From contig OX597830.1 of assembly GCA_951406725.2 (NCBI GenBank), positions 35,588,001 to 35,652,000 on the forward strand: 64,000 nt of DNA. Direction: 5' to 3'. The position numbers and the translations under genes were made by a program. The stretch's first letter is position 1. Each line of letters starts with the position of its first letter. The DNA comes from Octopus vulgaris (taxonomy: Eukaryota). Shown here in pieces: positions 59,490 through 59,937 of the stretch. A model generated the notes under the pieces. The model ran no database searches. It saw nothing but the letters and a program-made list of their open reading frames with translations, and was not told where the DNA came from.

Positions 59490-59642
59490 GGGACTCGTTT
59501 CGGTTATGACAATATGTGTTCCAGTTGATCCGATCAAAGGAACAGCCTGCTCGTGAAATTAACGCGCAAGTGGCTGAGCACTCCACTGGCACGTGTACCC
59601 TTAACGTAGTTCTCGGGATGATTCAAGCGTGACACAGCGTGA
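59490..59642 (-). mobile_element. SINE family C, 3' part
   Basis: Reverse complement of about 33195-33345. Confidence 0.85.
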
Positions 59643-59937
59643 AATAGAGAGATGAATAATCTTGTAGCAGATTAAACAAAAGTTTAACCGATACCTTGGT
59701 AGCAAAAATCACAGCAGAAGACAGCACGGTTGGAGGTACAACCATATGGTGTTGCAACCGTGCGTTGGTGCGGATAATTGAAATTAAAATATTATTGGTG
59801 AATTGAAGAAATGGAGCTGAACGAAGATTGAACAGAAATCGTTATATTTCATTCTTTCGAAACACGTGTAGAATGAAATAAAACGATTTCTGTTCAATCT
59901 TCGTTCAGCTCCATTTCTTCAATTCACCAATAATATT
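59639..59937 (-). mobile_element. Fold-back HHR mini-element, family H3, second copy
   Basis: 59639-59855 is the reverse complement of about 39493-39708. The inverted arm 59856-59937 starts with ttcgaaacacgtgta and abuts (TA)n. Confidence 0.9.

Follow-up and report, generated by a model that had tools for sequence, protein, structure and literature searches.

Several described systems are close to the insertions considered here. Inverted truncated arms, tails and targeting of (TA)n tracts are all known for Penelope-like elements, as set out in the relevant passages of PMC8557442. The hammerhead ribozymes of metazoan Penelope-like elements, as treated in the corresponding sections of PMC4209133, are dimer-type motifs of type I with a long stem II, a palindromic stem III and a U3-A8 variant of the core; they are weak as monomers, and those sections state that there is no in vivo evidence for their cleavage. 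For the element Poseidon PAc of Anolis carolinensis, the part of PMC11167929 devoted to cleavage reports that it is dispensable in the anole and that no reads end at the cut. A different type of join is described in the passages of PMC6789731 and PMC11838501 dealing with U6/LINE-1 chimeric pseudogenes, in which the 3' end of U6 is attached in sense to retroelement RNA and retroposed; rRNA fragments are likewise found in LINE-1 chimeras. RtcB ligation makes the U6 chimeras, according to the former paper. A literature search found no paper on 18S or U6 joins at Penelope hammerhead cuts.

Insertions resembling these systems were analyzed in a window of 64,000 nucleotides (64 kb) from Octopus vulgaris and elsewhere in its genome. 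The explanation that best accounts for them as a whole, with a probability of roughly 70%, combines head-to-head insertion, a minority of cut templates and chimeras of the RtcB type. The data bear on whether the weak animal Penelope hammerheads cut in vivo, and they provide named sites for the mapping of 5'-OH and cyclic-phosphate ends. The joins to 18S rRNA predict a fixed break, and the arms constrain how inverted insertions arise.

The element designated H3 has a tandem unit of 3624 bp with a single 899-aa ORF comprising a reverse transcriptase (RT) and, at its C terminus, a GIY-YIG-like domain. A YRDD motif and a YVG nuclease region are present in the ORF, which has 411 homologs; Pfam gave neither an RT nor a GIY-YIG match on it. 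The tandem pLTR units, the inverted 5'-truncated partner and the tail that characterize EN+ Penelope-like elements were all found, as were, on comparison of the H3 alignment with the published description of the Hydra clade, the motifs SDKT, IRW, CNLC and CPH and the lack of CCHH. As far as the relevant passages of PMC8557442 describe that clade, H3 shares with it the C-terminal GIY-YIG-like domain, DKT, RW, CxxC and CxH, the missing CCHH, the hammerhead, the (TA)n target, and both tandem and inverted 5'-truncated copies. It differs in its 3.6-kb unit and in a Ser/Asn-rich insert that replaces the CxCX5C linker, which is absent from the one full H3 ORF examined and present in aligned relatives. 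By its motifs, with the exception of the linker, H3 is a Hydra-like EN+ Penelope-like element. A breakpoint map and chimeras are described here for H3; the relevant passages of the Hydra-clade account contain neither. At G000:C1:119.51-119.53 Mb (L350-L351), 3624-bp H3 units that are nearly identical and keep the 899-aa ORF open are arrayed in tandem; this is a probable young source locus. Additionally, the minus strand of the window carries at positions 2-1677 another Penelope-like ORF with a frame change, consisting of an RT part (322-1677, Pfam RVT_1) and a GIY-YIG part (2-424).

The H3 hammerhead, whose core and stems II and III were found by a scan, is located in the terminal repeat (pLTR) in sense to the ORF; its stem II is long and its stem III palindromic. 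The octopus hammerheads are like the dimer-type motifs in the sections of PMC4209133 cited above in all the features listed there, from type I to the U3-A8 variant and the weak monomer; unlike them, one family here (L550-L573) has, in place of C3-G8 or U3-A8, an A3-U8 core that about 20 copies conserve. On folding of the H3 monomer the hammerhead motif was not the minimum-energy shape, and an Rfam scan of the window gave no hammerhead match at the gathering score.

The copy at 59639-59937 consists of two arms of one H3 repeat arranged head to head. Positions within the repeat are counted from the predicted hammerhead cut, which +1 follows immediately. The main arm, of subfamily A1, occupies 59639-59855 on the minus strand and extends from -1..+2 to the usual far end near +220. 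The short inverted arm, 59854-59937 on the plus strand, extends from -17..-15 to about +68 and reads through the predicted cut; its bases 59859-59870 form the 3' half of the core of the hammerhead, made up of GAAA, the palindromic stem III and GUA, with the predicted cut after 59870, and it contains an intact GAAACACGTGTA-GAATG site (59859-59875). The structure of this half was assigned by hand using the full motif at 39411-39503. The junction at 59850-59863 reads CATTC-T-TTCGAAAC, and its bases 59854-59855 are a microhomology matching both arms, so the main arm may start anywhere within -1..+2. The preliminary description had placed this start at AGAATG (59855), at the predicted scissile bond; the family match does run to 59855, but the start itself is ambiguous over the interval just given. 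The same junction is found again in an H3 copy of subfamily C (G000:C7:34835604).

The short arm is followed by a (TA)n target tract at 59938-60020, and the main arm adjoins a SINE fragment (59484-59641). It had been suggested that this 3' end joins the SINE through TCAC. The adjacency was confirmed, but the ungapped overlap is the 3-nt GTG at 59639-59641, and a fourth base needs a 2-nt slip. Since 97 of 100 full H3 main arms end in (TA)n, and the remaining SINE end was not found within 59938-63000, a deletion of the missing SINE end and (TA)n is the simplest reading of the join and a likely one. The copy is almost certainly an ordinary head-to-head, 5'-truncated Hydra-like Penelope insertion in (TA)n. 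If one cut RNA had served for both arms, neither would pass +1; the partner arm does pass it, and the odds that this copy derived from cut RNA are therefore rather low. Microhomology is a more likely cause of its break at the predicted cut than cleavage, and the lone breakpoint is by itself uninformative on cleavage. Directly after the (TA)n tract, at 60037-60268, a hammerhead family related to H1 is represented by a head-to-head copy, both arms of which read through their site.

The window contains several other insertions of this type. In the second H3 insertion, of subfamily C (39244-39712), the arms start at -104 and -90 and both read through the site; it carries a full hammerhead (motif 39411-39503, core 39420-39426, predicted cut after 39493). 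Two further starts had been described correctly, as lying about 3 nt past the site in an H1 copy near 1810 and about 12 nt past its equivalent in H4: the main arm of the H1 head-to-head insertion (1705-1867) begins at 1809, which is +4, and the H4 element, a partial tandem of a hammerhead repeat of ~497 nt on the plus strand (38416-39069, motif 38853-38910), begins at 38416, equivalent to +13. A hammerhead copy with a U3-A8 core at 48390 occupies 48384-48453 on the plus strand (predicted cut after 48418); its family makes 18S and U6 chimeras elsewhere (L389, L457, L469). A diverged, H3-like head-to-head insertion is located at 47826-48020.

H3 arms were counted by an exact 25-mer at +13..+37, which gave 1215 arms for subfamilies C/A1 and 1219 for A2. 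The G at -21 is kept in 2017 of these 2434 arms (83%) and lost in 207 (C/A1) and 210 (A2), and 42 of 46 arms in a gap-free C1 sample reach -7 or beyond, which identifies uncut RNA as the usual H3 template. Among the ends within -19..+12, 26 of 204 lie at -1/+1, where 13.2 are expected under uniformity, 16.0 under the best-fitting microhomology null and 19.4 under a stronger null (p = 0.0007, 0.01 and 0.08, respectively). The share in disjoint subfamily sets is 16/139 for C/A1 (computed) and 10/65 for A2 (by eye, among the 100 matches listed), and these figures do not clearly bear out the idea that A2, whose stem I is better, has a larger share of ends at the cut. Left out of the C/A1 counts were 12 of 164 arms with internal deletions and 11 of 207 rows that were not among the matches listed; point mutants and indels, judged by eye, were excluded, and the by-eye tallies omit indels and sense deletions as well as the edge position, which mutations confound. 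Arms ending at -1/+1 amount to about 1.6% of H3 arms, and the excess to about 0.5-0.7% at an assumed capture of 80%. Comparable hot spots fall at the palindromes at -16, -9 and +8, and -16 outnumbers -1.

The H1 ends, with 6 of 59 at -1/+1 and 5.1 expected, form no peak (by eye, best 100 of 929 matches), and none of 30 H4 loci starts at +1, their starts being spread from -313 to +138. When copies are plotted relative to the site, the breakpoint peak anticipated by the preliminary description thus appears weakly in H3, at about twice the uniform level, but in neither H1 nor H4. Of the 29 ORF-bearing upstream H3 repeats none starts at -1/+1, as 14 read through the site, two begin at +6/+9 and the other 13 at points further downstream; the hammerhead cut was therefore rejected as what sets the 5' end of full-length H3 RNA and of the templates made from it. 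It is also worth mentioning that several H3 arms, long and short (L361, L362, L373, L384 and the C1 sample), have their starts between -80 and -115, immediately ahead of the hammerhead, and that a gap extends from -92 to -46; these starts are possibly the transcription start. In H1, recurrent internal deletions between short AAC repeats remove part of the hammerhead (e.g., L241, L252, L259).

A broader claim made at the outset was that the 59639-59937, H1 and H4 copies were all templated by hammerhead-cleaved RNA, the cut setting their 5' ends. The ambiguity interval of the first copy includes the cut, its junction recurs once, about 40-50% of the H3 ends at -1/+1 exceed background, and the two RNAs of a dimer could differ in cleavage. 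Nevertheless, +4 and +13 are not the cut and lack a peak in their families, the partner arm at 59854-59937 passes through the site, the arms of one insertion seem to have a common template source, and most H3 arms, judged by the G at -21, are intact at the site. The claim was not upheld for the three copies, and cleaved templates are an unlikely explanation for them; the idea of cleavage behind the flagged copy likely does apply to a small minority of the templates.

The far ends of H3 arms are fixed at two places, mostly +56..+68 for short arms and +214..+222 for main arms, and the inner ends vary. Both arms of one insertion always belong to the same subfamily (62/62 and 78/78), and of the rare variants in arm pairs 8 are common to both arms and 33 are not. 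Two cDNAs copied from one RNA or one source fit this geometry. Fold-back from the main arm was rejected as a general route, since in 40 of 78 head-to-head pairs it is the short arm that extends further upstream. Partners of arms that end at -1..+2 remain downstream in 19/37 cases, no more frequently than partners of upstream-ending arms (41/74). There are 81 tight H3 joints, 20 of them near-symmetric without a palindrome, and in 8 of the 20 one arm starts exactly at +1, where 1.3-2.5 are expected (hand-coded); a cluster at +6..+11 is similar in size to that at +1. The double-ended joints centered on +1 often contain untemplated bases. To judge from the corresponding part of PMC11167929, H3 is like PAc in having two internal RT start sites, in the extension of both target strands and in the use of uncut RNA as the dominant template, whereas its start sites are ~155 nt apart and those of PAc 30-40; PAc has no RNA reads at the cut, while in the octopus it is DNA joins that mark the cut.

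Such joins involve 18S rRNA and U6. At L204 (G000:C1:121058000-121059700) the two H3 arms each begin at the site, and some 270 nt of 18S rRNA in sense orientation stand in front of them. One identical 18S nucleotide is joined to +1 of four families (L204, L389, L392, L419), and two of the four insertions (L204, L389) have the join in both arms. Of 43 genome matches to this 18S stretch only the four chimeras stop there; another two extend about six bases beyond it, and all others continue past. The donor end coincides with the 3' edge of an expansion segment that is long and GC-rich, and the junction base, A, is assignable to either molecule. Rfam gave only weak, hairpin-driven matches on L204. 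On the evidence of the joins, this nucleotide at the edge of the expansion segment is a candidate for a fixed rRNA break. An rDNA array with an 18.3-kb period is located at G000:C20:23.96-24.08 Mb, and many 18S fragments are dispersed elsewhere.

Joins to U6 were next predicted and looked for. The 21 U6 loci examined comprised L457 and 20 non-SINE loci chosen by eye from the best 100 of 466 U6 matches. U6 adjoins +1 of a predicted hammerhead in 10 of them, from seven families (L457, L469-L476 and L480), and 8 of these 10 have the join in both arms. In L477, the exception, the join lies ~40 nt downstream of its site; L484 is a probable +1 join, 8 of the 21 loci are not joins to hammerheads of Penelope-like elements, and L478 was assigned to neither class. 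A search for U6-H1 joins found none. The 18S and U6 sets together represent nine families, two of which are in both. In all 4 18S and 10 U6 joins the donor contributes its 3' end in sense and adjoins the acceptor without inserted bases. In the chimera families the core pair 3-8 is retained as C-G, U-A or A-U, and the join lies within a paired stem I; the retention of this pair and the closing of the stem support the assignment of the site, two of the reference motifs being represented by a single copy each. In ordinary members of these families, the site is mostly read through.

Enzymes of other retroelements are known to jump between templates. A chimera could arise without ligation if RT jumped from the cut 5' end to the 3' end of U6 or of an 18S fragment, which requires cleavage too. 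The junction sequence would be the same under a jump or ligation, and the 18S joins have one common base. The presence of the same join in both arms, in 8/10 U6 and 2/4 18S insertions, is simplest if the chimera existed as RNA, and U6 ends in a cyclic phosphate, an RtcB substrate according to the pertinent section of PMC6789731. A jump, the chief alternative to ligation, is distinctly improbable, and the form of the joins suggests that the chimeras were probably made by ligation. They are like the U6/LINE-1 pseudogenes in the passages of PMC6789731 and PMC11838501 in the sense orientation of the U6 3' end on retroelement RNA, in retroposition and in the involvement of rRNA fragments. Unlike those, they would use a 5'-OH that the ribozyme of the element itself makes at a single fixed base, whereas LINE-1 has variable nuclease cuts; the carrier is Penelope, the chimera occurs in both inverted arms, and there is one fixed 18S end.

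Ends at the site could also form without any cleavage, if the enzyme stalled before the duplex of palindromic stem III (-9..-2) and short sequence matches did the rest. Such stalling would agree with the apparent starts at -1 and +1 (19 vs 10, by eye), with the palindromic nature of the other hot spots and with the weakness of these hammerheads in vitro reported in the relevant sections of PMC4209133. However, when microhomology is spread evenly the weight moves to +1/+2, the blunt double joints are centered on +1, and in several families that differ in their stems -1 is excluded by joins such as those of U6 to a C, G or A at +1, all of which makes stalling a very improbable explanation. The 59639-59937 junction equals the common symmetric -16/-16 joint (9/81 tight joints) minus 8 bases, and the same copy likely has a deletion at its SINE end too, but the reading that the 8-bp palindrome was deleted later, at the DNA level, has only a slim chance of being correct, as the flanking repeat is one base only and the palindrome would form no stable hairpin.

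The in vivo ribozyme activity that the preliminary description saw as a genomic footprint is supported by the small H3 excess, the blunt joints at +1 and, most of all, the 18S and U6 joins at +1 in nine families, but as the mark of a minority template. Judged from these genomic patterns, hammerhead cleavage in vivo very probably took place for a minority of insertions genome-wide. In the favored explanation, two cDNAs would be primed at the two ends of the target, usually copying one uncut RNA; in the 59639-59937 copy they would have been joined through the two common bases. Occasionally the hammerhead would cut, probably as a dimer of the kind treated in the relevant sections of PMC4209133, and leave a 5'-OH. 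Both cDNAs would then run off at +1, to be joined bluntly, or the 5'-OH product may be ligated by an RtcB-type activity to a cyclic-phosphate end, of U6 or of the fixed 18S break, before reverse transcription; the chimeric RNA would keep both priming sites and be copied into both arms. The octopus data fit the relevant parts of PMC4209133 and PMC11167929 if uncut RNA works as a template and rare cuts leave base-exact joins. We lean slightly towards the wider proposition that germ-line cutting by hammerheads occurs in nine or more Penelope families and yields 5'-OH products that become ligated to cyclic-phosphate ends of cellular RNAs, among them a fixed 18S break not described before. If so, Penelope insertions would be a fossil capture assay giving a base-exact map of ribozyme cuts and hidden rRNA breaks, and both arms of an inverted insertion would be copied from one RNA. 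As to the dispersed U6 copies in general, most are fused to SINEs (L439-L468), and in many the fusion lies close to where the SINE starts or at one of a small number of internal points that recur.
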